A stretch of DNA of 64,000 nt, from contig CBDAVT010000002.1 in the NCBI GenBank assembly GCA_965201145.1, forward strand, positions 1,417,084-1,481,083. Reading direction: 5' to 3'. A program made the position numbers and the translations under genes. The DNA is from Dehalococcoidia bacterium (GTDB taxonomy: Bacteria; Chloroflexota; Dehalococcoidia; Lucifugimonadales; UBA3495). Below are positions 3,386 to 55,257 of the stretch, one piece after another. Under the pieces are notes generated by a model, which saw nothing but the letters and a program-made list of their open reading frames with translations, did not search any database and had not been told where the DNA came from. How positions within the stretch are numbered: position 1 is the first letter of the stretch; every line of letters starts with the position of its first letter.

Positions 3386-4333
3386 TTACCGGGAGGGGAA
3401 CCGGGCCGCCAGGATGTCGATTATCAGGGCGGCGCCCAGTTGACTGGTTAGTTCAGAGGAATCATACGGCGGGGCAACCTCCACCAGGTCAAAAGCAATC
3501 AGGTTGCGGTTAGCCACCAGACTGATCAGGCAGTCCCGCATTTCGTGGTAGAACAGGCCGCCAATCTCCGGGGTGCCGGTGCCGGGCGCCTGGCTGGGAT
3601 CCATCACGTCGATGTCCAGGGTGATATACAAATTCTCGCCCCGGGGTATCCGCTCCGCCACGCCTTGAGGGCCCAGGGAACGGAACTGTCCGGTGGTGAT
3701 AATCAGGCTGCCGTCCCGCTGCGAGTCCTCGTAGGGTTGCCGGCGCGCGGTGCGAATGCCGACCGAGGTTATGTGATTGACAAAGGGCAGTTCCCGACAG
3801 CGGCGAATGGGGCTGCCGTGGGTATAAAGCTCCCCCTGATAGTCATGGCTGTAGTCCAGGTGTGCGTCAAAATGGACGATATTCAGCGGCTCGAACCGGC
3901 TTAATCCCCGCACCACCGGCCAGGTGATGGCATGGTCGCCGCCCACCACTACCGGGAAAGAGCCGCGGGCGGTCACCTGTTCCACCGCTTGGGTGAGCTT
4001 GTCGAAGTTGCGCTGCACGTTGGAGGGGATGGTTGTTATATTGCCGCAGTCGGCCATTGTGACTCCGCGCAACAGTTCATCGCCGGCCTCAATGTTAAAG
4101 AAACCCTCGGCCTCCTGCTGGCGGCCAAAGGGGTCGGTGTAGGAATAGGTTCGGGGCGCATCCCGAATAGCGTCGGGGCCGTAGCGCGCCCCCGGCCGCC
4201 CCAGGGTTCCCTGGTCGAAGGGCATTCCGATAAATGCTATATCGGCTTCCAGGTCGTCCAGATTGGCGCACAAAGGGGCCTTGAAAAAGGTACGCGGCTG
4301 GGCCCGGAGAATGGGCCATTCCTGTTCCGCCAT
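3386..4333 (-). CDS. Agmatinase/arginase-family ureohydrolase
   Basis: Mn-binding motifs GGDHAITWPV, HFDAHLDY and DIDVMDPSQAPGTGTPEIGG. Confidence 0.85.
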   Translation of the reverse strand: MAEQEWPILRAQPRTFFKAPLCANLDDLEADIAFIGMPFDQGTLGRPGARYGPDAIRDAPRTYSYTDPFGRQQEAEGFFNIEAGDELLRGVTMADCGNITTIPSNVQRNFDKLTQAVEQVTARGSFPVVVGGDHAITWPVVRGLSRFEPLNIVHFDAHLDYSHDYQGELYTHGSPIRRCRELPFVNHITSVGIRTARRQPYEDSQRDGSLIITTGQFRSLGPQGVAERIPRGENLYITLDIDVMDPSQAPGTGTPEIGGLFYHEMRDCLISLVANRNLIAFDLVEVAPPYDSSELTSQLGAALIIDILAARFPSR

Positions 4334-4480
4334 TAGTTCCTCAAGTCAGCAGCTGGGCTGGATTAGGCGAGTCTCCGCCGCCGGGGAGATTCCGGTAGGA
4401 TTGTACCCGGGCGAGTGTAAAACCCGCCCGGGTATGGTTCACGTCCGATAATGGTGAAGGTCGGCAGCTTCGTCCGGGTG

Positions 4481-5452
4481 TTAGTCCCAAATGGCAAAAA
4501 CCTTGAAGGAAATCTGCGACTGCTCCTCCAGGTGGTCAACGATTTGGGCCGGTCGGTCGCCCACCACGCCCATAGGCACCAGCCAGTTCAGGAATTCGTG
4601 GTCGCCGGACTGCTGGATTTCTTCCGGGGTCAGCTCGGCTATCTGGCTGCTCTTCCCTTCCTTCAGCAGCTCCAGGTTGTGCCGGTCGAAATCGGTGTCA
4701 AACTGGGAACGGTTGAACTTGTGGGTCAGGAAGCTGTGGGACCAACTGGAGGACCCGATGATGGCAACCCGCTCGGCGCGAGTGTCCAGGAAGCGGCGGA
4801 TGGACTGGCCCAGTTCGTAGCACCGCTTGGCCGTGGGCCGGGGCGGATAGCCTTCGCCGGCCTCCTCGCCGTAGCAGTTAACGAACAGGGGCAGGATCGT
4901 AAGTTCACCTTCCGGGTCCAGGAAGGTCAGCGGATTGCAGTGAGCGTGGGGCAGCCCCCAGTCCCAGCCGGTAAGCTTGGTCGCCGAGGACATATCAAAG
5001 CCTTCGCGAATCAGGTGGGACAGCATGGCTCGGGAAAATTCGGCCGGGCAGTTATAAGAATACTTGGCGTCCGGGGCGGCATCCCACAGGTTGTTGTGTC
5101 CCATAGGTCGGTGGAAGGGATAGGCGTCCACCCGGTCGCCGGTAAAGAGGCAGAAGGTGGGCAAATTTTCCCGCTTGAAGTTCTCCGCCTGGTCGTCGCC
5201 CACAATCATTACCACGTCGGGCTTCCAGGCATGGAGCTTCTCCTTCAGCACGGCGAAGGCGTCGGCGATGCGCTGCTGGTTCTTGATGTCATGCGACAGG
5301 CCCTCGTCGTCGCCCATCTGCTCAATCATCTCCGCCGGAGCTTCGTACTCGGGAATACCGCCGTAGATGCGCTTGCGCATATTGCGCCACTCTTCGGGCG
5401 GGTTGAGAATCATCGGGGCGTGGCTGCACCCCAGACCAAGAATTTCGGCCAT
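4481..5452 (-). CDS. Extradiol ring-cleavage dioxygenase class III (LigB-like) family protein
   Basis: N-terminus MAEILGLGCSHAPM and overall length and pattern are typical of LigB/AmmeMemoRadiSam-type subunit B proteins. This is family-level recognition only. Confidence 0.55.
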   Translation of the reverse strand: MAEILGLGCSHAPMILNPPEEWRNMRKRIYGGIPEYEAPAEMIEQMGDDEGLSHDIKNQQRIADAFAVLKEKLHAWKPDVVMIVGDDQAENFKRENLPTFCLFTGDRVDAYPFHRPMGHNNLWDAAPDAKYSYNCPAEFSRAMLSHLIREGFDMSSATKLTGWDWGLPHAHCNPLTFLDPEGELTILPLFVNCYGEEAGEGYPPRPTAKRCYELGQSIRRFLDTRAERVAIIGSSSWSHSFLTHKFNRSQFDTDFDRHNLELLKEGKSSQIAELTPEEIQQSGDHEFLNWLVPMGVVGDRPAQIVDHLEEQSQISFKVFAIWD

Positions 5453-5762
5453 TGTATATTCCTCCTGTTAGCTGGCGCCTTTAGGCAGCCCGGTTAGGCC
5501 CATTATAGCAGACCGGAAGGGCGATAGCCCAACAATCAGACATTCTCCGGGGAAGGCGCCGGGCCGGTCGCTATTGTGGCGAGACCGTCAAGAATTTTAC
5601 CCGATTCACTTACGGGCGGGAGGCGCAAAACCTGCTTTTCCAAAATGGACCGGAGAACGCCGGAGCGTTGGCAAGAAAGGAGGAAGGTCAAGTTAGCGGC
5701 GGGAACTCAGGGTAATCGGTATTCTGCTAAAATAGGATTCTATAAATTCTCGGGAGCGCGCT

Positions 5763-6236
5763 ATGCCTTCGCGCAAACTGGACCTGCACGGCAAAACCTG
5801 GGCTGAGGCTCTGGTCGAGTTTCGTGATTTCTACAATGCTGCGGTGCGCGCCTACCCCAACGGCAACGGGGCACCCCTGGAGGTAGTTCACGGGTACGGT
5901 TCCACCGGGGCTGGCGGTCGGATACTCACCAGTTTGCGCAATTACCTGGAACAGCAAAGCCGCGCCGGGCTGCTGGCTTACCGCACCGGCGAAGCGGCGG
6001 ACGGCAACCCGGGCCACACCCTGGTTACTGCCCTGAAGCCGTTGCCCACCGCCGGCGACGACCTGGATGACAGTATCCTAGAATACTGCGCTCGCGCCCA
6101 AAGCCACAGCAAGGTCATGAACCGCTTCCGGCGACACGGCGACCCTGAAGTGAAAGAGGCCATCCGCCGTCTGGAGTCCCGGAAACGGCTGCAATCGGTA
6201 ACTGTAGGGCGCGAGAAGGGGTATCGGTCAATTTAG
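5763..6236 (+). CDS. Smr-domain protein
   Basis: LDLHGKTWAEA ... LEVVHGYGSTG matches the Smr LDLHG / HGxG signature. Confidence 0.7.
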   Translation: MPSRKLDLHGKTWAEALVEFRDFYNAAVRAYPNGNGAPLEVVHGYGSTGAGGRILTSLRNYLEQQSRAGLLAYRTGEAADGNPGHTLVTALKPLPTAGDDLDDSILEYCARAQSHSKVMNRFRRHGDPEVKEAIRRLESRKRLQSVTVGREKGYRSI

Positions 6237-6286
6237 GTCGGCGGAACAGCCCCATATTGCTTTCCATCTGCCGGCGTACCTCCCGC

Positions 6287-7775
6287 TTATTGACCCGCTC
6301 CGCTCAAATCAATGCTCCCCAAATCCAGCAATTCCCCGTCCTTGACGACTACCCGCTTTTCCACAGCACCGCCTTGCTTCCCGGGCCAGCGAAATAGATA
6401 GGTTCCCTGGGGCAACTCCAGCTGAAAATTACCCTGGACATCGGTTTGCCATTGGCCCACGGGTTTGGGCGCAGCCGGCGCCAGCCGTAGCAGACGGTCA
6501 TCCCCGGGCCGGGACCGGCCCCGGCCGTCCCGATTGCTGGTGGTAAAGTAAACGTACCCGTCCGGACCCATAATCACGGCCCGCAGGCGGCCAAATTCGC
6601 CGCGCAGCAGACTTTGATTTCTTGCCACTGTCCGAAACTCCGGCGGCGCCAGAATCACCCGCTGCAATTGGGAACCCTTGAGCGCCGCAAAGAGCAGGTT
6701 GCCGTGCCAGGAAGCGGCCAGCCGGTCTACGGCAACGAAATCCGCCCCGGCGATAGCCACCGTCGGTGTCAGGGACAGGATGGGGGTCGGCGTATGCGGA
6801 CTGGCCGGCGGCGCCGGTAACCTCAGGCCACCCGTAGTTGCGTCCTGCCTCCAGCAGATTAACTTCATCATCCCGGTCCGGCCCGTGTTCGGTAATGAAC
6901 AAATCAGCAGTGTCGGGATGCCAGGCTAATCCCTGCGGGTTGCGGTGCCCGTAGGTGTAGATATAGGAGTCGGGAAAGGGGTTATCCGGCGGTACGGAAC
7001 CATCGGCCGCCAACCGCAGCGTCTTCCCCGCCAGGGAGTCCAGGTCCTGGGCCAGGTCGGAGTCGGTGGCGTCGCCGGTGGTGGCGTAAAGATAGCCGTC
7101 CGACCCGAAACGAAGCCGGCATCCGTCGTGGCGGGAAGTCCCCGGAATCCCGTCCAGGATAACCTGATGCGACGTTCCCCGGCCTTCCCGGTCAGTCAAC
7201 CGGGCAATTCGGTTATACCAGCTGCCATCCTGCCGATAGGTGTAGCAAAGGTAGAGCCAGCCGTTAACGTCGAAGTCCGGGTCCAGCGCCATCCCCATCA
7301 AACCGGCTTCGGAAATATGGGCCACCGCAATGACCGCATAGGGAGTGTCCTGAAGCCGGCCGTCCCGGAATACCCGGATTCTCCCCGGCCGCTCAGTTAT
7401 CAGAATTCGGCCGTCCGGGGTGAAGACCAGATCCCAGGGAATTTCCAGTCCCTCGGCAACGGTTTCAACGACCACGCGGTCCGGAATCTGGACTACCTCA
7501 AGGGTTACCGGAGCGGCGGGAGCGTTTGCCCCGGCCGGCAAAGCCACCCGGCCTTTGACCGGGACGCTAACCGGGGTGGCAGACTGGGCCTCAATGCTGT
7601 CGGCCCCGTCCGAAGTTCCAACCGTCGGCTGACAAGCTGCTATAGCCAGGGCCAACACCGGAGCCAGGGCCAATACCGGCAAAAACGCCGCAAGCAGCAA
7701 AGCCGAATCGCGCCTCAAAGCAAATTTAACCCACGCCCGGGCCGGAGAAAAATGGCAGTTCAGAATAAATAACAT
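6287..7775 (-). pseudogene. PQQ-dependent sugar (glucose/sorbosone) dehydrogenase with a C-terminal carboxypeptidase-regulatory-like domain, split by a 1-nt frameshift
   Basis: ORFs 6498-7775 and 6287-6871 are consecutive parts of one protein (GLEIPWDLVFTPDGRILITERPGRIRV, YGHRNPQGLAWHP, NYGWPEV, then AIAGADFV...FTTSNRDGRG). The frames join if the G5 run at 6782-6786 were G4 (giving YADPILSLTPTVAIAG). Confidence 0.8.
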
Positions 7776-44815: not shown

Positions 44816-46022
44816 CAGGGCTATCGCATATGAAAAGAGCAGGAATTGGGTAAGATATTGGTTGTAGTTGAGTAGGAAGGGAGGACGGCATGTCCGAGCT
44901 AGAGGATCTGTTCGCTGACCTGGAGGACCCGCGCGCTGGCAACGCCCGCCGGCATTCCTTGCACGATATTCTGGTCATTGCCTTGTGCGCCATCATCTGC
45001 GGCGGCCAGACCTGCACCGATATGGAACTCTTTGGCCGGGCCAAACGGGAGCTGCTGCAATCTTTCCTGAAGCTGGAAAACGGCATTCCCAGCCACGACA
45101 CCTTCTCCCGGGTGCTGGGAATGCTGGACCCGGAGGCTTTCCAAGGGTGGTTTATCGAGTTCATGGCCGAGTTTGCCCAAGGTGTTGAGGGAGTGGTGGC
45201 GGTGGACGGCAAGACCTTGCGCCGCTCCTATGACCGGGCGGGGGCACGCTCGCCACTGCATCTGGTCAGCGCCTGGGCGGAGGAGCAGCGGCTGTCGTTG
45301 GGGCAAGTGGCCGTTGCCGGCAAATCCAATGAGATTAAGGCTTTGCCCAAACTGCTGGAGTTGTTGAACTTGCGCGGGAAAGTGGTTACCGCCGACGCCA
45401 TGCACTGCCAGCGTCAAGTGGCACAGCAGGTGGTAGCCCAGAAAGGGGATTATGCCTTGGCGCTGAAAGGCAACCAGGGCCGGCTGCGGGACGATGTGCA
45501 GTTGTTTCTGGAGGACCCGGACACCCCAGCGACCCAAGCCAGCGAGGTCAGCAAGGGGCACGGGCGGGTGGAGCGGCGGCAGGCCCGGGTCAGCGGGGAC
45601 ATTGACTGGCTGCAGGAACGATATGCCTGGCCCGGCTTGAAGGCGGTGGGCAAAGTAACGGCCACCCGGCAGTTGGCGGCGGCGGAACCGGCTCCGGGAG
45701 AACTGCACGAGGAAACCCGGTACTATCTGCTGAGCCGGGACTGGTCGCCGGAGCGGTTCAATGCCATTGTGCGGGGCCATTGGGGAATTGAGAACCGGCT
45801 GCATTGGGTACTGGACGTAACCTGCAATGAAGACCAGGCCCGCAACCGGAAAGGACACGGGGCGGAGAATCTGGCCTTGCTGCGGAAACTGGCTTTGAAC
45901 CTGGCTCGGCTGGAACCGGGCAAAGGCTCCATGCGCGGCAAGCTGAAACGGGCCGGCTGGGACGACAATTTCCTGATTAACATCCTGGCCCAATTCACTA
46001 AATTCCATATGCGATAGCCCTG
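44816..46022 (+). mobile_element. ISAs1-family insertion sequence, copy 2 (1,207 bp), without a matching TSD
   Basis: Same 17-bp terminal inverted repeats. The left flank is GGGACGGCCG, but the right flank is a G run, so no direct repeat is present. Confidence 0.9.
44890..46017 (+). CDS. ISAs1-family DDE transposase, copy 2
   Basis: The 375-aa protein is apparently identical to copy 1. About five nucleotide differences were seen over the whole element. Confidence 0.92.
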   Translation: MSELEDLFADLEDPRAGNARRHSLHDILVIALCAIICGGQTCTDMELFGRAKRELLQSFLKLENGIPSHDTFSRVLGMLDPEAFQGWFIEFMAEFAQGVEGVVAVDGKTLRRSYDRAGARSPLHLVSAWAEEQRLSLGQVAVAGKSNEIKALPKLLELLNLRGKVVTADAMHCQRQVAQQVVAQKGDYALALKGNQGRLRDDVQLFLEDPDTPATQASEVSKGHGRVERRQARVSGDIDWLQERYAWPGLKAVGKVTATRQLAAAEPAPGELHEETRYYLLSRDWSPERFNAIVRGHWGIENRLHWVLDVTCNEDQARNRKGHGAENLALLRKLALNLARLEPGKGSMRGKLKRAGWDDNFLINILAQFTKFHMR

Positions 46023-46247: not shown

Positions 46248-46673
46248 CTATTCTACCAGCCAATTTCGTAACGACTGGGGACGACTCCCCCATCCGGCTA
46301 CATCCGATACGTGGGTAGAGCCACTCCAAACCCACGTTTCCAGCTCCGGCGATAGCACTATTGTCCTTGCCCGTTCACCCCACCTTGAATTTGAGAATTC
46401 CTCATTCAGACTACTTTCCAAGACTATGGGAGTTAAGTTCTCTCTACCGCTGCCTTCGTGATCGAACAATAGTAACGCATGGCGATACTGGTTAGTGAAA
46501 TTGGACAAGAAACTAACGCCATGTCTGGCGCAGGCGGGGTCATGTTGAGGGTGCACGCGAATATCAGTTTCAATGGCACGAATGTTCAGCGCTTGGGGAC
46601 GATTAAGCAACCCTGTCAGCGTGTGTTCCATGTCCTTATCAGCAACCAGGACTATCAGGTCTTTCCGGCTCAT
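46248..46673 (-). CDS. Small acidic protein (141 aa), possibly Toprim/DUF4276-like, partner of the upstream ATPase
   Basis: The start overlaps the ATPase stop (4 nt). The strand-plus-acidic patterns LIVLVADKDMEH and ALLLFDHEGSG recall Toprim-type E / DxD motifs. This assignment is tentative. Confidence 0.55.
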   Translation of the reverse strand: MSRKDLIVLVADKDMEHTLTGLLNRPQALNIRAIETDIRVHPQHDPACARHGVSFLSNFTNQYRHALLLFDHEGSGRENLTPIVLESSLNEEFSNSRWGERARTIVLSPELETWVWSGSTHVSDVAGWGSRPQSLRNWLVE

Positions 46674-47926
46674 CCCAGTACACCGGAGGCCAGCAAAGTC
46701 CCCAAATCAACATCACCTTGCCAATCTCTGAGTTTGGGATGTTCTGAACCAAGAACAATATCGGTAGAGCCGTCATCACATTTGGCGAAACAGATCACGC
46801 TGCTTGCTTGAGCTGCATTCAATACCACCGGCGAATGAGTTGCCAGCAGTACTTGAGACTTGTACAGGGAAGATAAAGAATCATAAGCGGTAGAAACAGC
46901 GGCAGGATGGATTCCGTTCTCCGGTTCCTCAATCAGGTAAGTTCCCGAAATGTCTGGCAAATATGCCGGCAAAGTTAGAGCTGCAAGCCGAAGTGTGCCA
47001 TCGGAGACCAGCCAGGAAGGGATGCTCATTCCGCCGGCGTACTGGAATATCATGTAACAATGTCGATCTTCAGGTCGCTCAAAGGTTGAGATGTCAACCA
47101 GTTCAGGCAATGCAGTCCTTAGATGTCCGATCCAGGCACGATGCCGTTCCGGATGCTCCTGACCCAGCCGTTGGACAACCCAGGGAATATTTGAGCCATC
47201 GGGCAAGAAGCCGGGGATCCTGACTGGGGAGCTAGGCCGTTTTATAACTCGGCTATTTAGGACAAACGACTGGACTCCCTCGGTCAAGAAATTCCGAAAC
47301 CACATAGCCACCGGGAATGAGTTTTCGTCAGCGGGCAAGTTTCCTAAAGCCGACCTTTGGAGCCCTAGTTTGAAGGAGGGCGCCCAACCTCGGCCCGAAT
47401 GTTTGTATGTTTCGCTGTAAAAGTTGTCGTTTCCCCCGGGAACTTTGTTAACTACCACTTTATTAGCCGACCCATGAATTCCTACCAGTAATGTGGCCGG
47501 TATGGGCATCAGAGATGGAAAAAATGAACGCCGGTTTTCAGTTTCCCTGCCCTTGCCAAGTAGAAAGGTTTCTGACTTGAACTCAAATCGTCTTCCCGTT
47601 TCGTCCAGGCCCAATACAATCTGATAGCGAGCTGTCTCCAAATCCGGTCGGGCGGTTAACTCACGCAATGTATCCGGGATAAGCGCCTCTACTGCCAGTT
47701 CAAAACGGGATCCCATACCCTGAAACAGGAGTTCATGAGGGTTAGGAGTCCGCTCTAGCAAGGCATTTTCTAATCCATAGGACACCAAGTCGCTCAGGAA
47801 ACCAATGACATCCAGAAAGGTGGACTTGCCGGACGCATTTGGGCCCACCAGCACATGGAAGGGATTGAGCGGCCTTTGAACGTAGCGTAAACAACGGTAA
47901 TTCAGAGCTTCGACCAACGTAATCAT
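46670..47926 (-). CDS. ABC-type (AAA_15/AAA_21-like, RecF/SMC-head-like) ATPase
   Basis: Walker A VGPNASGKST, Walker B plus D-loop YLIEEPENGIHP, and H-loop LLATHSPVVL. The protein is 418 aa. Confidence 0.8.
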   Translation of the reverse strand: MITLVEALNYRCLRYVQRPLNPFHVLVGPNASGKSTFLDVIGFLSDLVSYGLENALLERTPNPHELLFQGMGSRFELAVEALIPDTLRELTARPDLETARYQIVLGLDETGRRFEFKSETFLLGKGRETENRRSFFPSLMPIPATLLVGIHGSANKVVVNKVPGGNDNFYSETYKHSGRGWAPSFKLGLQRSALGNLPADENSFPVAMWFRNFLTEGVQSFVLNSRVIKRPSSPVRIPGFLPDGSNIPWVVQRLGQEHPERHRAWIGHLRTALPELVDISTFERPEDRHCYMIFQYAGGMSIPSWLVSDGTLRLAALTLPAYLPDISGTYLIEEPENGIHPAAVSTAYDSLSSLYKSQVLLATHSPVVLNAAQASSVICFAKCDDGSTDIVLGSEHPKLRDWQGDVDLGTLLASGVLG

Positions 47927-47968
47927 CGGAAGAATCCCCCGTCATCATCGTCCAACCTTCATTGTTCC

Positions 47969-49012
47969 CTACCCCCTCCCCACCAGACCTTGCGCGGTGC
48001 GGATTACCCGGGCGGCGTTGGGGACGTAGGCGTTTTCCAGGGGGCGACTGTAGGGTACGGGAGTGTGGGGCGCCGTGACCCGGGACGGAGGGGCATCCAG
48101 GTAGTCAAAGGCTTCCTCGGCTACCCGCGCGCAGATGTCTGAAGCCAGACTGCATACCGGCGTATCCTCGTCCACCACCACCAGCCGATGGGTGCGTCGC
48201 ACCGAGTCGATGATCAGGTCGTAGTCGATGGGCGACACGCTGAGCAGGTCCACCACCTCAGCGTTGATATTCGCTTTAGCCAACTCCTCCGCCGCCTCGG
48301 TGCAAACCCAGGTCATCCGGGAAATACCTACCAAAGTTATGTCGCTGCCGGAACGGACGGTCCGAGACTTGCCCAGGGGAATGGCATAGGGTTCTTCCGG
48401 CACCGGCCCGGTATCGCCGTACAATCCCTTGTGCTCGAAATAGACCACCGGGTCGTCATCGCGAATGGACGCAATCAGCAGCCCCTTGGCGGTGTAAGGG
48501 TCGGAGGGAACCACTCCCTTCAGGCCCGGTATGTGGCTGAAGATGGAGTAAAATGACTCGGAATGCTGGGCGGCGCTGCCGAAGCCGGCGCCGATGCGGG
48601 TCAACATAGTGAAGGGAACCTTGACCTGACCGCCGAACATATACCGCATCTTGGCCGCATTATTCAACAGCTGGTCCATACAGACGCCGACAAAGTCGAC
48701 GAACATCAACTCGGCCACTGCGCGCATCCCGGTAGATGCGGCGCCAATGGCAGTACCCACGAAAGCGGCCTCGGACAAGGGGGTGTCCAGCACCCGCTGG
48801 TTGCCGAACTGCTGAATCAGCCCCACGGTGGTGCGGAAGGGGCCGCCCCAGGCATCGACGATGCCCAGATGCTCCCGGCCGGCGCCACCGGCAATCTCCT
48901 CACCCATAATTATGACCGTCTCATCGCGCTCCATCTCCTGGCGCAAGGCCTCATTAATGGCCTCGCGGTAACGCAGCTCCCGGGTAGTGTTGGGAGTCAT
49001 GGTAGTAGTCAT
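47969..49012 (-). CDS. 2-oxoacid (pyruvate/acetoin/branched-chain) dehydrogenase E1 component, beta subunit
   Basis: LREAINEALRQEMERDETVIIMGEE...VLDTPLSEAAFVGTAIGAA is the typical transketolase-like pyrimidine-binding and C-terminal domain pattern. Confidence 0.9.
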   Translation of the reverse strand: MTTTMTPNTTRELRYREAINEALRQEMERDETVIIMGEEIAGGAGREHLGIVDAWGGPFRTTVGLIQQFGNQRVLDTPLSEAAFVGTAIGAASTGMRAVAELMFVDFVGVCMDQLLNNAAKMRYMFGGQVKVPFTMLTRIGAGFGSAAQHSESFYSIFSHIPGLKGVVPSDPYTAKGLLIASIRDDDPVVYFEHKGLYGDTGPVPEEPYAIPLGKSRTVRSGSDITLVGISRMTWVCTEAAEELAKANINAEVVDLLSVSPIDYDLIIDSVRRTHRLVVVDEDTPVCSLASDICARVAEEAFDYLDAPPSRVTAPHTPVPYSRPLENAYVPNAARVIRTAQGLVGRG

Positions 49013-49101
49013 GGTGTTACTCCTTGCTTCAGATTCCGGTCAACTTTAGCGTCGCAGTAGGCAGGGCAAAATTTCCAGGTCTGAATTGCCAAAGAATCAA
49101 T

Positions 49102-50022
49102 TCAGGCCGTGAGGTAACGGGAATTATTTTCCAAAAGAAGCAATTGTTCCCTTGCTTCAACTGCATCTCCCGTCAAGTTGGTCAGGTCATAGTTTGTAAC
49201 AATGGCTTCCAGCATGGGTTTCCTGTTTCTCTCGTAGGCGCCAACGTGATAAAAGTGCTCCTGTATGGATACTGAAAACTCGTTCCACAGCTCAGGTACA
49301 AACCGATTGACTCGGTGCTGGTTGCTATGCCACGTGGACAGCATAAACCTGGCCGGTGTATTCTTCAACAGACCGTGCAGCTGCCGCTCCTGCCGGTCAT
49401 CCCAAGTATGATAATAATCTACGTGTCGGCCAGCGTAAGGCGGGTCGCAATATACAAAATCATGGCTCGCAACTTCCTGAATCGTCTTCCGGAAATCCTG
49501 GCAGACAAAGTTCCAATTAAGCATTTGTACGGCTGCTCTAAAACACTCCACCTGGTTTACTATTTTCGTAATGTAAGCCGGCGAAAACCGCTTTGGCTTG
49601 TGCCCAAAGGGAACATTGAAATGCCCCTTGCTATTGAATCGGACAACTCCGTTAAAACAAGACCGATTGAGAAAAAGAAAGTCCAGGGGGCAAGCCAACG
49701 AATTGAAACGGTCTCTGATATAGTAGTAATGGGACTTGCCGTTATTCGCCAACAAGGTCCCCTCGCGCTCGAGGAAAAACCTTGTCGTCTTACCATCTAA
49801 TTCTCCTTCTTTGATGGCCTGATAAAACCGAATGATATGAGGGTTAGTATCTGCCAGCAGAGCCTTCCGGGGCAGCACATTCAGAGCAACTACTCCGGAA
49901 CCGAGGAAAGGTTCAATCCACACTCCATCAGAATCTCGGTCAAGACACCGCAAGATTTGCGGGACCAGTTTGGTCTTGATACCCTGGCACTTCAGCGGCG
50001 GGACTCGCACTCGCAAGCTCAT
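49102..50022 (-). CDS. Dam-like N6-adenine DNA methyltransferase, M.EcoRV-type
   Basis: QGIKTKLVP, EPFLGSGVV (FxGxG), FLFLNRSCFNGVVRFNSKG, and the catalytic CDPPYAGRHVDY. Collinear with M.EcoRV as I recall it. Confidence 0.85.
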   Translation of the reverse strand: MSLRVRVPPLKCQGIKTKLVPQILRCLDRDSDGVWIEPFLGSGVVALNVLPRKALLADTNPHIIRFYQAIKEGELDGKTTRFFLEREGTLLANNGKSHYYYIRDRFNSLACPLDFLFLNRSCFNGVVRFNSKGHFNVPFGHKPKRFSPAYITKIVNQVECFRAAVQMLNWNFVCQDFRKTIQEVASHDFVYCDPPYAGRHVDYYHTWDDRQERQLHGLLKNTPARFMLSTWHSNQHRVNRFVPELWNEFSVSIQEHFYHVGAYERNRKPMLEAIVTNYDLTNLTGDAVEAREQLLLLENNSRYLTA

Positions 50023-50867
50023 CTCCTACTCCGACTCCGCCGGGCGCGGGGGACGATTTTAGTCTCGTCCCCACCGCGATATTTGACAAAATCTGGCAAG
50101 TTTCGAATTGTACGGGTCTCACCTGATTCATCCCGTACAGTGATACTATCGTAATTCATCCAATAATCATCGAACCACTCTTCACCGAGCACGGAGAACA
50201 TCCCCTTCCCCGAAACTATGTCATAAATATCGGTTATGCTGCCAATGTTTGCTGTATTGCCGCTCCCTCTCCGATCACTGGCAATCTTCCACTTTTCCTG
50301 TACGAAAAACTGAAAGTCCCGAATCACTGAGGCTACAGACTCCAGGTCGTCCAATTGATGAGTCTTGGTTTCGCTTGCCGTATTACCAGAATTTCGGGAA
50401 TATATCATTCCCAGGCAGTAGTGGCCCAAGTAGTCTCTATAGGGAAACTGAATATTCTTGGTACTGCTTCGATTCCTAAAGTACTCTCCGTGGGAGCCTA
50501 GAGTAAAGCCATTGCAAAAATCTGGAACACCGGCGATTCGATAGGTCGTCTTGAAATCGACGGCAAATTTTACCTCTGGATTCGTTAACTTCACAAAAGA
50601 CAGGTCCGGATAATAGTTTTGGTGCTCTGCTAGAACTAGTCCGAAGCCCGTTTGCTCGGCAAATAACAGGAGTTTCGGGAAAAGGTGTATCTCAAGTATC
50701 TTGGATACTACTTTCGTGTCGGACGAAATAGCATATATGTTGCGATAAACATCTATAAAGCCTTTTACAACCCACTGCCCATCTTGTGTTTCGACTTCTC
50801 CGCTCCAGTCAGCGACGAAACTCGATAGAGCGCGGGAAAAGGAGATTTTCTCTTCTTCCCGGTCCAA
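50019..50867 (-). CDS. Type II restriction endonuclease, R.EcoRV family
   Basis: Collinear with R.EcoRV: SSDTKVVSKILEI / GSDTKVLSTIFEL; QNYYPDLSF...KFAVDFKTTY / QNHYPDFTL...KIAIDIKTTY (PD...DxK); KWKIASDRRGSGNTANIGSI / KWVIAGDLAGSGNTTNIGSI; GKGMF...DDYWMNY / GKGIF...LDYWRNY. The start is TTG at 50867. Confidence 0.85.
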   Translation of the reverse strand: MDREEEKISFSRALSSFVADWSGEVETQDGQWVVKGFIDVYRNIYAISSDTKVVSKILEIHLFPKLLLFAEQTGFGLVLAEHQNYYPDLSFVKLTNPEVKFAVDFKTTYRIAGVPDFCNGFTLGSHGEYFRNRSSTKNIQFPYRDYLGHYCLGMIYSRNSGNTASETKTHQLDDLESVASVIRDFQFFVQEKWKIASDRRGSGNTANIGSITDIYDIVSGKGMFSVLGEEWFDDYWMNYDSITVRDESGETRTIRNLPDFVKYRGGDETKIVPRARRSRSRR

Positions 50868-51052
50868 CTTAATCCCTATTTATGGCTAAAGTGGGAAAGT
50901 ATATCCGCTTCAATTTAACCTGCTGACGTAAGTAAAGAGCCCCACAGTCCTCCCGGATGTATGCTGTCTTTGTGAAGATGAACGGCATGGCTCACACGCT
51001 GCTATTGACAAGGTCTGTTCAGTTGGTGTCCCTACTGATGAGATTAGCCCCC

Positions 51053-52060
51053 CTAAACTTCTAGGTTTATCCCCCGCTTCATCATATCGACCGGGTAGTC
51101 CACGTACACGTCGTCGTAGATTTCCGGCGGGGCCGGCAGCGGGCTTTCGTCGGCGAACCGGATCGCCTCTTCCATCAGTTCCCGGGCCGCATCGTCCAGC
51201 CGGTCCAGTTCGGACATGGTTACCAGGCCGCCGGGGGCGACCCTTTCCCGGAACAGCTTCAGCGGGTCGCGACCTCGCCAATAGTCCTGTTCTTCCTGGG
51301 TACGGTAGCTCAGGGGATTGTCGAATACGGTATGCCCGTAATAGCGATAGGTCCGGCATTCCAGCAGGGAGGGGCCTTCGCCGGCCCGGGCCCGGCGCAC
51401 CGCCTCGCCGGCGGCTTCAAAGACATCGAAAACATCCATACCGTCCACGTGAATCCCCGGCATATCGTAGCCGGCAGCCCGGTCGGCCACCCGCGCCGTG
51501 GACAAGGCATACTCTACCGGGGTGGATTCGGCATAACCGTTGTTTTCACAGCAGAAGATAACCGGCAGTTTCCAGACGGATGCCAGGTTCATACATTCAT
51601 GCAGTACCCCCTGGTTGGCGCCGCCGTCGCCGAAAAAGGCTACCGCCACCCGCCCCAGACTGCGCAGTTTGGAAGTCAGGGCAGCGCCAACGGCCAGGGG
51701 GATGCTGGCCGCCACCACGCCGTTGGTACCTAACATTCCCTTGCTCATATCGGCGATGTGCATTGAGCCACCCTTGCCCTTGTTGGGCCCGGTGGCGCGC
51801 CCGAACAGCTCGGCCATCATCAGCTTGGGATCCACGCCCTTGGCGATGCAGTGGCCGTGGCCCCGGTGGGTGCTGCCGATGTAATCGTCCACCGACAGGT
51901 GGGCGCAGATGCCGGTAGGCACCGCCTCCTGTCCGGCTGATGAATGTACCGAACCGGACATTCCCCGCTGGCCGGTCTCGGGGATTCCCCGCTCTTCAAA
52001 GTGTCGGATAGTGGTCATAGTCTTGTAGAGATAGAGCAGCATATCGCGGTCAAGTTCCAT
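51053..52060 (-). CDS. 2-oxoacid dehydrogenase E1 component, alpha subunit (TPP-binding)
   Basis: YIGSTHRGHGHCIAKG, the TPP motif FFGDGGANQGVLHECMNLA, and CENNGYAES. Confidence 0.9.
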   Translation of the reverse strand: MELDRDMLLYLYKTMTTIRHFEERGIPETGQRGMSGSVHSSAGQEAVPTGICAHLSVDDYIGSTHRGHGHCIAKGVDPKLMMAELFGRATGPNKGKGGSMHIADMSKGMLGTNGVVAASIPLAVGAALTSKLRSLGRVAVAFFGDGGANQGVLHECMNLASVWKLPVIFCCENNGYAESTPVEYALSTARVADRAAGYDMPGIHVDGMDVFDVFEAAGEAVRRARAGEGPSLLECRTYRYYGHTVFDNPLSYRTQEEQDYWRGRDPLKLFRERVAPGGLVTMSELDRLDDAARELMEEAIRFADESPLPAPPEIYDDVYVDYPVDMMKRGINLEV

Positions 52061-52115
52061 AATCCCTCTCTTCTGCGCTGGCAGACCAGTTACTTGGCTG
52101 GGCGAAATTTTCCCA

Positions 52116-52143
52116 ATGGTAGCACGGGGCCAAAGGTTGTCAA
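52116..52143 (-). promoter_or_regulatory. Promoter-like TTGACA-N16-TACCAT upstream of the E1 alpha gene
   Basis: The reverse complement (rc) reads TTGACAACCTTTGGCCCCGTGCTACCAT, about 55 nt before the ATG at 52060. Confidence 0.35.
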
Positions 52144-52303
52144 TAGCACCGGCCGCCGACAGACCGGCGGCTGCGCTGACTTGGCCCGCAGCCGCGTTGT
52201 CCGGTAGGCGTCGGAAACCGGCATCTTTGGTGGGCTGTCTTGCACCGATTCACGGGCCTACCGGAATGAGAACGCAGGTTTCAATACGAGTGAAGTGTTT
52301 CCA

Positions 52304-53191
52304 TTAGGAAGCCGGGCCAACCCGGACCGGAGTCCCGACGCCGAGGCCCAACTCCGCAGCGGCGCTACCATCAGGGACGGCGATTTCCAGATAGCCGCTG
52401 CTGCCCAACAGCGCGGCCAGGGGCAGACCGTCGGGTTGTGCGCCGAGTTCCGCCGCCGGGTCATGGAAGGTACGGCTTAACCCGCGGATACGGCGCGGCC
52501 CGATGACTACGACTGCGTTGGCTGCATCATAGCCGGCCGCGTGCAGAGTCGCTTGGGAAATATTGGTTATCAGGTTCCCGAACCGGTCGATATAAATGAC
52601 CTGGCCGGACACTTGCCGGTTCCGGATGCCCGGTTCCGGTAACGGGCGGTATATAATTTGCGCCGCTTGCGGCCCCAACTCCGCCGGAGCCAGGCCCAAA
52701 GAGAGGTGAGCGGCCGCCGGCGCGAAAACGTCCCGGCCGTGGAAGGTGCTGCTGACCGGCTCCAAACGATACCGGGGATTGGTAATTTCGTAGGCCGTCA
52801 ATTCCGCCGGCAGGCGGACCAGGCTGCCGGCCGGGTCGATGTCGGGGGTTGCGTCCAGGTACTGCTTGACTACTTCGCTGAGCAGTCCGTTGTCCGGCGC
52901 CACGAAGGTGGCGGTGGGCGTTTGCAGCGCCAGCGCCCGGCGGTCGGTACCCACGCCGGGATCTACTACGGCGGTATGGATAGTTCCCGACGGGAAGTAG
53001 GTATGATTGACCCCTAAGAGGAAGGCGCCCTGACCCAAATTCTGGGGTTGTATGTCGTGGGTCAGGTCAATTATCCAGGCGGCCGGGTTAATGCCGAGAA
53101 TGACGCCCTTCATTACGCCCACAAAGGCGTCGGACAAGCCGAAGTCCGTAGTCAGGACAATCGGCGGCACCCCGACAGCGAAGCCGGTCAT
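52304..53191 (-). CDS. SAM hydrolase / SAM-dependent halogenase family (DUF62) protein
   Basis: IVLTTDFGLSDAFVGVMKGVI...IIDLTHDIQPQN...VVDPGVGT is the characteristic N-terminal signature. Confidence 0.8.
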   Translation of the reverse strand: MTGFAVGVPPIVLTTDFGLSDAFVGVMKGVILGINPAAWIIDLTHDIQPQNLGQGAFLLGVNHTYFPSGTIHTAVVDPGVGTDRRALALQTPTATFVAPDNGLLSEVVKQYLDATPDIDPAGSLVRLPAELTAYEITNPRYRLEPVSSTFHGRDVFAPAAAHLSLGLAPAELGPQAAQIIYRPLPEPGIRNRQVSGQVIYIDRFGNLITNISQATLHAAGYDAANAVVVIGPRRIRGLSRTFHDPAAELGAQPDGLPLAALLGSSGYLEIAVPDGSAAAELGLGVGTPVRVGPAS

Positions 53192-53775: not shown

Positions 53776-55257
53776 CTATTGTCCTTGCCGGACAGTTTCT
53801 AACTCCTGCTGGACCAGCTCCAGAACCAGGTCGGGATGAGCCTGCCCGCGGGTCAGTTTCATCACCTGACCTACCAGGTATTTGGATGCGGTCTCCTTGC
53901 CGCCCAGGTAGTCGGCCACCGCCTTGGGATTTTCGGCCAGGGCCTGAGCCACCGCCGTTTCCACCACCGCCGAATCCCTGATTTGGCTGTATCCCTTTTC
54001 GGCTACAATTTTACCGGGTTCCTGCCCGGTAGCAAAGGACTCTTCCAGTACCGTCTTGGCCATAGTGCCGTTGAGCGTGCCCGAATCCACCAGGGCCAAC
54101 AGTTCCGCCAAGTGCGGCGGCCTGACTTTCAGGTCGCCGATAGTCAGATTTTCCAGATTCATCAACCGGCTCAGGTCGCCCAGAATCCAGTTGCTGACGG
54201 ACTTGGCGTAAACTTCCAGGGACGGCCCGGATTCGGGACGAAGAGCTGCCACTGCCTCGAAGTAGTCCGCCATCGCTTTTCCACCGGTTAACAGGCCGGC
54301 GTCGTAAAGCGGCAGCCCGTATTGCGACACGAAGCGCGCCTTCCGCTGGCCGGCCAGTTCGGGAAGCCGCTGCCGGATCTCGTCCACCCACTCCCGGTCA
54401 ATCACCAGCGGCGGCAGGTCCGGCTCCGGGAAATACCGATAGTCGTGGGCGTGTTCCTTGCTGCGCTGGGAAACGGTAACTCCCCGTTCCTCCTCCCAGC
54501 CGCGAGTTTCCTGGGTAATCCGCCCGCCGTCTTCCAGAATGAGCCGCTGCCGGTCAACTTCATAGTTGAGGGCCAGGTAAACCGACCGAAAGCTGTTCAT
54601 GTTCTTGATTTCGGTGCGGGTGCCAAATTCCTGACTGCCGGCGGGTCGCAGACTAATGTTAGCGTCGCAACGGAAATTGCCGTTCTGCATATTGGCCGCC
54701 GAAACGCCCAGGTACTGCATTATGGAATGGAGCGTTACCAGGTAGGCCCGAGCCTCTTCCGGCGAGCGCAGGTCCGGGGCGCTGACAATTTCCATCAGCG
54801 GCGACCCGGCCCGGTTAACGTCCACCAGACTGTAAGGCTCTCCGGGGGCGTCGGGAAAGTGGAGCAGCTTGGCGGCGTCTTCCTCCAGATGAACTCGCAT
54901 TACGCCGATGGCCCGGACCGCTCCGTCCACTTCAATTTCCAGGGAGCCTTCCTCGGCTAGAGGGATGTCGTACTGGGAAATTTGATAGCCCTTCATCAAG
55001 TCGGGGTAGGGATAGTTTTTACGGTCAAACTTGGAGTATTCCGGTATCCGGCAGCCCAGGGCCAGGCCCGTCATCAGGGTGTATTCAACGGCGCTGCGGT
55101 TGATGACCGGCAGGGCGCCGGGCAGGCCCAGGCACACCGGACATACCCGGCTGTTGGGCGGGGCGGACTGGTAATCGGCGGGACAGCCGCAGAACATCTT
55201 GCTCCGGGTCTGCAACTGAACGTGGACTTCCAAGCCGATGACAGTTTCGTAGTTCAT
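53776..55257 (-). CDS. gatB: Asp-tRNA(Asn)/Glu-tRNA(Gln) amidotransferase subunit B
   Basis: [15 protein letters not shown]...SKMFCGC...[17 protein letters not shown] and the C-terminal GatB/YqeY domain. Confidence 0.93.

Follow-up and report, generated by a model that had tools for sequence, protein, structure and literature searches.

The stretch of DNA analyzed here (the window, 64,000 nt; C2:1417084-1481083) belongs to a Dehalococcoidia bacterium whose 3.09 Mb genome (G000) was assembled from a metagenome in three contigs, with an estimated contamination of 4%; the source contig is 2.4 Mb long. Within the window, a restriction-modification (R-M) gene pair is lodged between the E1 alpha and E1 beta genes of what appears to be a 2-oxoacid dehydrogenase, with all four genes on the minus strand. 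We conclude with good confidence that this pair is an intact, probably active EcoRV-type R-M system, carried as long-standing cargo in the variable spacer of a native E1 alpha/beta unit. The restriction endonuclease gene (R) precedes the methyltransferase gene (M), and the two genes overlap by 4 nt where the stop of R meets the start of M (ATGA). The insert that parts the two E1 genes (49013-51052; 2,040 nt) has a G+C content (GC) of 0.476 versus 0.62 in both E1 genes (0.621 in E1 alpha), and GC at third codon positions is 0.51-0.56 in the insert genes versus 0.76-0.77 in the E1 genes. An earlier reading of the letters alone (hereafter the original prediction) had given the coordinates of the two E1 genes, the shared strand, the 4-nt overlap and the lower GC of the insert, and had named the genes as an EcoRV-family Type II pair in the order R then M; the open reading frame (ORF) list and GC counts agree with the former, and profile matches and sequence with the latter.

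The predicted R protein matches the EcoRV endonuclease profile (PF09233, Endonuc-EcoRV) over its positions 2-244 of 244, at 377.6 bits (cut-off 25). EcoRV chains in the PDB match it at E=1e-40, and R.EcoRV of plasmid pLG13 is 36% identical to it across the full alignment. When R is set beside the pLG13 R.EcoRV and five relatives in an alignment, the catalytic residues E45, P73-D74, D90 and K92 are invariant, as are the recognition residues of the Q-loop (Q69/N70) and of the R-loop (G182-S-G-N185-T186 and N188); we take the roles of these residues to be those assigned in established structural work on EcoRV. The sole recognition-loop change is T187A, which is common to every aligned R homologue that is not from E. 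coli. Four genomes carry the cassette at this site (see below), and all four keep the TTG start of R, its N-terminus MD(K/R)E(E/A)EK, a GGAG-like motif 5' of R and an ATGA/GTGA junction between R and M. No controller gene was found 5' of R: the 185-nt spacer contains no minus-strand ORF of at least 60 amino acids (aa) that begins inside it, and the only minus-strand ORF listed there is an out-of-frame one that overlaps the E1 alpha gene. Outside the family, the nearest R homologues (64-70% identity) lie in metagenome-assembled genomes of several phyla (Spirochaetia, Poribacteria, Anaerolineales). Several of them belong to sponge-associated groups, such as Poribacteria, and the closest relatives in public collections of the Dehalococcoidia lineages surveyed here likewise include several sponge-associated groups.

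The M product scores 197.1 bits against the Dam family profile TIGR00571 (cut-off 114.85) and 160 bits against PF02086 (E=9.5e-47), is called MTase_II by PADLOC with 416 bits, and contains both an FLGSGVV motif for S-adenosylmethionine (SAM) binding and a catalytic CDPPY motif. The methylase of pLG13, the EcoRV plasmid, is 56.5% identical to it over 277 aa, whereas against NF008152, the equivalog of E. coli Dam, it reaches only 101.6 bits (cut-off 441). Judged by these comparisons, M is nearer to M.EcoRV than to GATC-specific Dam. M.EcoRV modifies the first adenine of GATATC.

Of the 16 other genomes in the genus, 15 yielded E1 alpha orthologues, and in 14 of the 15 scorable ones the E1 alpha stop lies 48-93 nt from the E1 beta start. 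The R-M pair is thus inserted cargo, as the original prediction had proposed on the view that the two E1 genes are normally adjacent. The native spacer varies in sequence and ends with a Shine-Dalgarno sequence 5-8 nt ahead of the ATG. Because the source genome retains such a sequence just before E1 beta (AAGGAG, 7 nt ahead of the ATG), the cargo sits inside the spacer and both E1 genes are whole. The two border spacers (49013-49101 and 50868-51052), which had been proposed as places to look for direct repeats, share no direct or inverted repeats and no target duplication above chance: their best local alignment scores 18, as compared with a mean of 15.9 and a maximum of 28 for shuffled sequences. 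No integrase or transposase gene occurs among the ORFs of 49013-51052. A self-mobile R-M unit was rejected, since there are no flanking repeats, target duplication or linked mobility gene.

Homologues of R occur in 12 of the 121 genomes of a family-level search, and in no congener of the source genome. Within a sister genus, three species (G063, G081 and G106) hold the same R-then-M cassette in the same spacer between E1 alpha and E1 beta. Relative to these three carriers, the source genome shows 80-83% aa identity for R and 75-76% for M, and synonymous divergence (dS) of 1.27-2.04 for R and 1.13-1.29 for M, set beside 0.79-1.39 for E1 alpha and 0.76-0.91 for E1 beta. Because the same site is occupied in three sister-genus species and dS is at least that of the flanks, the cassette must be old. 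The ratio of nonsynonymous to synonymous divergence (dN/dS) is 0.05-0.16 for R and M (for R, 0.05-0.10 against the source genome and 0.08-0.13 among the sister-genus carriers). Together, these comparisons of the coding sequences argue that the cassette is an old resident with both R and M under strong purifying selection. Its GC lies 12-16 points under the flanks in all four carriers, so that low GC is a stable property of the cassette and not a sign of recency. The spacers around the cassette are less well kept: the 185-nt sequence between E1 alpha and R does not align by blastn to the loci of the sister-genus carriers (L055-L057), and only the AGGAG...ACCATGAC part of the spacer between M and E1 beta is kept among the four carriers. 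In a tree of E1 alpha plus E1 beta, the source genome falls inside its own genus (support 97/96) and the sister genus is separate, which argues that the E1 flanks are native. Import of the whole block from E1 alpha through R and M to E1 beta is ruled out by the same tree.

The source genome avoids the EcoRV site. GATATC occurs 81 times against 541 expected under a fourth-order Markov model (observed/expected 0.15), which ranks it sixth in depletion among the 64 palindromic hexamers, with one site in the window and none in the cassette. At 26 sites per Mb, it is about five-fold rarer than in nine of ten cassette-free congeners (125-178 per Mb). Two of the sister-genus carriers have similarly low counts, with 0.6 per Mb in G063 (2 sites in 3.4 Mb) and 18 per Mb in G106 (60 sites). 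Carriers and non-carriers of both genera differ in GATATC with p=0.027 by Fisher's test and p=0.01 by the Mann-Whitney test, phylogeny being ignored. The original prediction had named GATATC as the specificity by homology and had proposed that its genome-wide depletion be counted; the invariant recognition residues and the avoidance of GATATC both back that specificity, which stays a prediction by homology. Several other palindromes show much stronger depletion in this genome than GATATC does (TTTAAA, 7 versus 339 expected; GTATAC, 6 versus 220; CGTACG, 16 versus 377; likewise GCATGC and ATGCAT), which suggests pressure from several other restriction systems.

The spacer that holds the cassette is variable across the family. 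Among the 132 family genomes with both E1 alpha and E1 beta among the matches listed, the spacer is shorter than 200 nt in 82 and measures 205-5433 nt in 48, of which 44 exceed 400 nt; in one genome the pair is split by rearrangement, and in another the two genes lie on different contigs. Sampling of 22 further occupied spacers brought the cargo types to at least eight (about nine), R-M included. These comprise a GmrSD Type IV enzyme (G021), a CAP-domain protein (G006), a methylase fusion of ~1,010 aa found in four genera with 74-77% mutual identity (L038 in G056, L039 in G044, L040 in G122 and L041 in G084) and a truncated copy of it (L037 in G088), a 960-aa relative accompanied by an ORF that is PIN-like by sequence only and has no family match, DUF2283-containing pairs, pairs of a ~90-aa protein with a retropepsin-like protein, and a tRNA_anti-like lipoprotein. 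The ~1,010-aa protein has an N-terminal PD..E.E-like motif together with DYACGSGG and NPPF methylase motifs, finds no match in Pfam and only weak methylase matches in PADLOC, and is possibly a Type IIG-like fused restriction-methylase. All cargo genes with a family match are co-oriented with the E1 genes, as are all of the longest cargo ORFs but the doubtful antisense one of G200, and the Shine-Dalgarno sequence of E1 beta can be seen beyond the cargo in most of the spacers inspected at sequence level. An R-M cassette in such a place had been expected to be shielded from loss; this expectation finds no support in the relatives, most of which are without the cassette and others of which hold different cargo in the same gap.

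We then considered how the cassette could be expressed. The promoter-like site of the locus, a 10/12 match to an E. coli-type consensus that may not apply to Chloroflexota, lies only upstream of E1 alpha; inside the insert there are only weak consensus matches, at or below the chance rate. Terminator-like sites in 47800-52500 number 2 against a shuffled mean of 4.9, again by an E. coli-type consensus that may not fit Chloroflexota, and the only one in the spacer between E1 alpha and R is a weak 5-bp stem at 50999-50985. An inverted repeat at 49078-49108 gives an 11-bp hairpin across the M stop that lacks a U-tract, and folding of the spacer between M and E1 beta is not significant (z-score -1.5). 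Because the genes share a strand, the promoter-like site lies only 5' of E1 alpha, no convincing terminator intervenes and the E1 beta Shine-Dalgarno sequence is retained, co-transcription of the R-M pair with the E1 genes is plausible. The pair would most likely be transcribed from the E1 promoter by read-through, with E1 beta using its own ribosome-binding site. R would be translated from a weak TTG start, the ATGA overlap would couple translation of M to that of R, and no C-protein regulator would take part. By homology, M would modify the first adenine of GATATC, and an R homodimer would cut unmethylated GATATC with Mg2+ through the E45/D74/D90/K92 site. Across the family, the spacer is either empty or holds co-oriented selfish or defence modules that differ between species.

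Several other explanations of the cassette have to be weighed against these data. The original prediction implied a recent and private horizontal insertion that split a formerly intact operon; the GC of 14 points under the flanks would fit such an event, as would the lack of R homologues in other same-genus genomes and the occurrence of the nearest homologues from outside the family, at 64-70% identity, in unrelated metagenome-assembled genomes. We consider this very unlikely, because three sister-genus species have this cassette in the same spacer, at a dS of 1.1-2.0 that is not below that of the flanks, because the GC offset recurs in all four carriers, and because a five-fold loss of GATATC throughout a genome needs long exposure. 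Alternatively, the cassette might be a mere passenger that is present but no longer restricts, R being silent or inactive, or that recognizes a site other than GATATC. The intact copy in G081, whose genome does not avoid GATATC, would be explained in this way, and the weak TTG start of R and the lack of an evident promoter of its own point in the same direction; against this, the dN/dS of R is low (0.05-0.10 against the source genome and 0.08-0.13 among the sister-genus carriers), the catalytic and recognition residues are all invariant, and GATATC is strongly avoided in G000, G063 and G106, so that a passenger seems improbable. A faulty assembly or binning step that attached foreign, low-GC DNA to the E1 genes would be conceivable in a metagenome-assembled genome with 4% estimated contamination, but can be set aside as having next to no probability, given a contig of 2.4 Mb, the same junctions in three independent assemblies of other species, and flanking genes that are intact and in register.

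The most serious rival concerns the source of the shared position, which would be either common descent with losses or an old exchange of alleles between genera by homologous recombination in the conserved E1 flanks, in the manner of cargo at defence loci that core genes flank. Exchange would account for the patchy carriage (1 of 16 genomes in the source genus, g1, and 3 of 5 in the sister genus, g6), for a pairing of R and M within the sister genus (G063 with G081) that differs from the E1 pairing (G063 with G106), and for the presence of the same ~1,010-aa cargo in the same spacer of four genera; the E1 flanks, at about 83-85% nucleotide identity across both genera, would offer a substrate, and there is a documented precedent for R-M systems replacing one another as alleles at one locus (PMC2853133). 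However, a search for recombination tracts in the E1 flanks gave no clear local rise of identity to the sister-genus carriers beside the cassette, the flanks of the source genome group with its own genus, and the dS of the cassette is not below that of the flanks. We regard old exchange as possible but doubtful. A close sister of the source genome, which would help to separate vertical descent from old exchange, was sought with gatB DNA and not found, every relative standing at 74-79% nucleotide identity. The gatB gene itself (53776-55257) is 79% and 78% identical to those of G063 and G106, as compared with 74-78% to most genomes of the same genus, a gap too small to interpret, though the gene belongs to the neighborhood of the cassette.

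Our preferred reading, that of an intact and probably active system held as old cargo in the spacer of a native unit, has its own difficulties. The genera are deep, of the type defined by GTDB, and the source genome stands in its genus without a close sister, as the gatB identities show. Simple amelioration would not lead one to expect low GC to persist after a dS of ~1. In G081 the cassette is intact and subject to purifying selection, yet the genome has 449 GATATC sites (132 per Mb) and no depletion, and G002, G044 and G055 are depleted of GATATC with no R homologue found, so the link between carriage and depletion is imperfect. The promoter and terminator scan relies on an E. coli-type consensus that may not apply to Chloroflexota. 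Finally, a control spacer, which separates E1 alpha from the upstream SAM hydrolase gene (52304-53191), is longer than 400 nt (471-6618 nt) in 29 of 101 genomes.

This last count, set against 44 of 132 for the E1 spacer, led us to drop the idea that the E1 spacer is a uniquely hot site. It is a frequently occupied cargo slot and not demonstrably a special hotspot, and small spacer insertions seem common throughout the family. The E1 spacer stands apart in two respects only: it is equally permissive despite lying between two subunit genes, and its cargo is co-oriented. A bolder and tentative proposal, which we rate as unlikely, is that the E1 spacer acts as an orientation-constrained docking slot, in which modules persist only when co-oriented, ride the core operon and are exchanged through the E1 flanks; E1 beta would then still be read through past the co-oriented selfish or defence modules, such as R-M systems, Type IV restriction enzymes and toxin-antitoxin-like pairs. 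The orientation of ~9 co-oriented cargo types gives a sign test of about 0.002, if these are independent events, and the recurrence of the same cargo at the same site in different genera and the long retention of low GC also favor the proposal. That an ordinary upstream spacer is occupied about as often speaks against the slot being special.

Features of the E1 locus and its downstream neighborhood in the window.
Feature	Position	Strand	Remarks
E1 alpha gene	51053-52060	-	PF00676, E=3.7e-91; native core gene; upstream flank of the cargo
R, EcoRV-family Type IIP restriction endonuclease	50019-50867	-	PF09233; 282 aa; TTG start
M, Dam-family (D12 class) N6-adenine DNA methyltransferase, M.EcoRV-like	49102-50022	-	306 aa; TIGR00571, PF02086
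E1 beta gene	47969-49012	-	PF02779 and PF02780, NF006667; native core gene; downstream flank of the cargo
Spacer, E1 alpha stop to R start	50868-51052	-	185 nt; non-coding, AT-rich, GC 0.470
Spacer, M stop to E1 beta start	49013-49101	-	89 nt; holds the E1 beta Shine-Dalgarno sequence
Promoter-like site 5' of E1 alpha	52116-52143	-	TTGACA, 16 nt, TACCAT, extended TG; pattern match only
MAD3-like ABC/AAA ATPase and MAD4-like small protein	46670-47926 and 46248-46673	-	separate low-GC defence module after E1 beta
ISAs1-family insertion sequence	44816-46022	+	NF033564, 388 bits; at the synteny break

The E1 genes themselves are well conserved, with orthologues within the genus 92-96% identical for E1 alpha and 95-97% for E1 beta. 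E1 alpha scores 347.6 bits against TIGR03182, under the pyruvate dehydrogenase equivalog cut-off of 393.85, and its substrate is uncertain for that reason; E1 beta reaches 333.4 bits against NF006667 (cut-off 321) and has Transket_pyr and Transketolase_C domains. From these matches the pair would be a 2-oxoacid dehydrogenase of the pyruvate/acetoin type, with the substrate uncertain. The genes for E2 (PF00198) lie far from the E1 locus, at C1:367811 and C2:344816. The original prediction was right that E2 and E3 genes are missing 3' of E1 beta and that an ATPase pair and an insertion sequence stand there; the absence is probably not a result of the junction with those elements. In G006 and G021, the two relatives that were read further 3' of E1 beta, the next genes are an NMT1-like one, which is convergent, and one for an alpha/beta hydrolase, and a two-gene E1 alpha/beta unit without adjacent E2/E3 appears to be the native state in the relatives examined. 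The NMT1-like and hydrolase genes of the source genome sit 229 kb away (C2:1234772-1236596), and the ISAs1 element after E1 beta has more than 20 genome copies at 99% identity or above. Because these genes have been displaced and the insertion sequence lies after E1 beta, a rearrangement at that element is likely, and it probably broke synteny just 3' of E1 beta.

The ATPase gene next to E1 beta scores 471.9 bits against the MAD3 profile NF047739 (cut-off 420), and its 141-aa partner scores 128.7 bits against the MAD4 profile NF047734, below the cut-off of 160, over model positions 1-142 of 206. PADLOC ranks HEC-01A above mad3 for this pair (46248-47926) and also calls mad3 and mad4. No other MADS genes were noted near the pair, and no search aimed at them was made. 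The MAD3/MAD4-like module has a GC of 0.51 and is not part of the R-M cassette. A 2026 paper (PMC13662399) presents MAD3-MAD4 as an OLD-related ATPase-nuclease module. In G021 (L022), 3' of E1 beta at 4087-6656, an N6_N4 methylase gene (PADLOC MTase_II, 356 bits) overlaps a 328-aa ORF without a family match that probably encodes its endonuclease partner; the far side of E1 beta would thus also take defence cargo.

Enzymes of the EcoRV R and M families, R-M pairs in tandem without a controller gene and R-M insertions into operon-like clusters are all already known, and the cassette described here does not change R-M biology in kind. It indicates that an R-M pair can persist for very long inside a core two-gene unit without breaking the unit, and that low GC in a cassette of this kind should not be read as a measure of recent arrival. 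In this family, co-oriented cargo is tolerated where spacers are short, including those that part subunit genes, a point of relevance to the spread of defence and addiction modules in these lineages. The pair is also a tractable candidate enzyme system of EcoRV type from an uncultured Dehalococcoidia lineage, in R-then-M order and with no controller gene.

The nearest well-known counterpart is the EcoRV system of E. coli plasmid pLG13, with which the cassette shares the PF09233 fold family, identical catalytic and recognition residues, a methylase of 56.5% identity and the predicted site GATATC. In pLG13, however, R and an upstream helix-turn-helix regulator gene are divergent from M, whereas here R and M are in tandem, with a TTG start on R and no regulator; more generally, R in the source genome is without the upstream helix-turn-helix controller gene of C-protein-controlled R-M systems, of which EcoRV is the prototype. 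The setting also differs, in that pLG13 is a small mobilizable plasmid and the present pair is chromosomal and intra-operon. In layout, the cassette more closely resembles a pair annotated on plasmid pRMAR01 of Rhodothermus marinus DSM 4252, which has R then M, a 4-nt overlap and no regulator gene, with a methylase that is 52% identical; that pair, by contrast, stands in a plasmid defence cluster beside a Type I system and not in an E1 alpha/beta unit. Insertion of Type II R-M systems into operon-like clusters, and their allelic substitution at one locus, have been described (Furuta, Abe and Kobayashi 2010, PMC2853133). The cases of those authors match ours in having R-M genes between the genes of one unit, alleles with an empty site and other restriction systems at the same locus, but our cassette has no long target duplication or flanking repeats, its occupancy is old and spans genera, and the cargo of the E1 spacer also includes toxin-antitoxin-like pairs and non-defence genes. 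Finally, the variable defence cargo between conserved core genes (R-M, GmrSD Type IV, MAD3-MAD4) recalls core-gene-flanked defence islands and hotspots; the E1 slot differs from these in being a spacer of ~50 nt between the subunit genes of one enzyme, in which all identified cargo is co-oriented.

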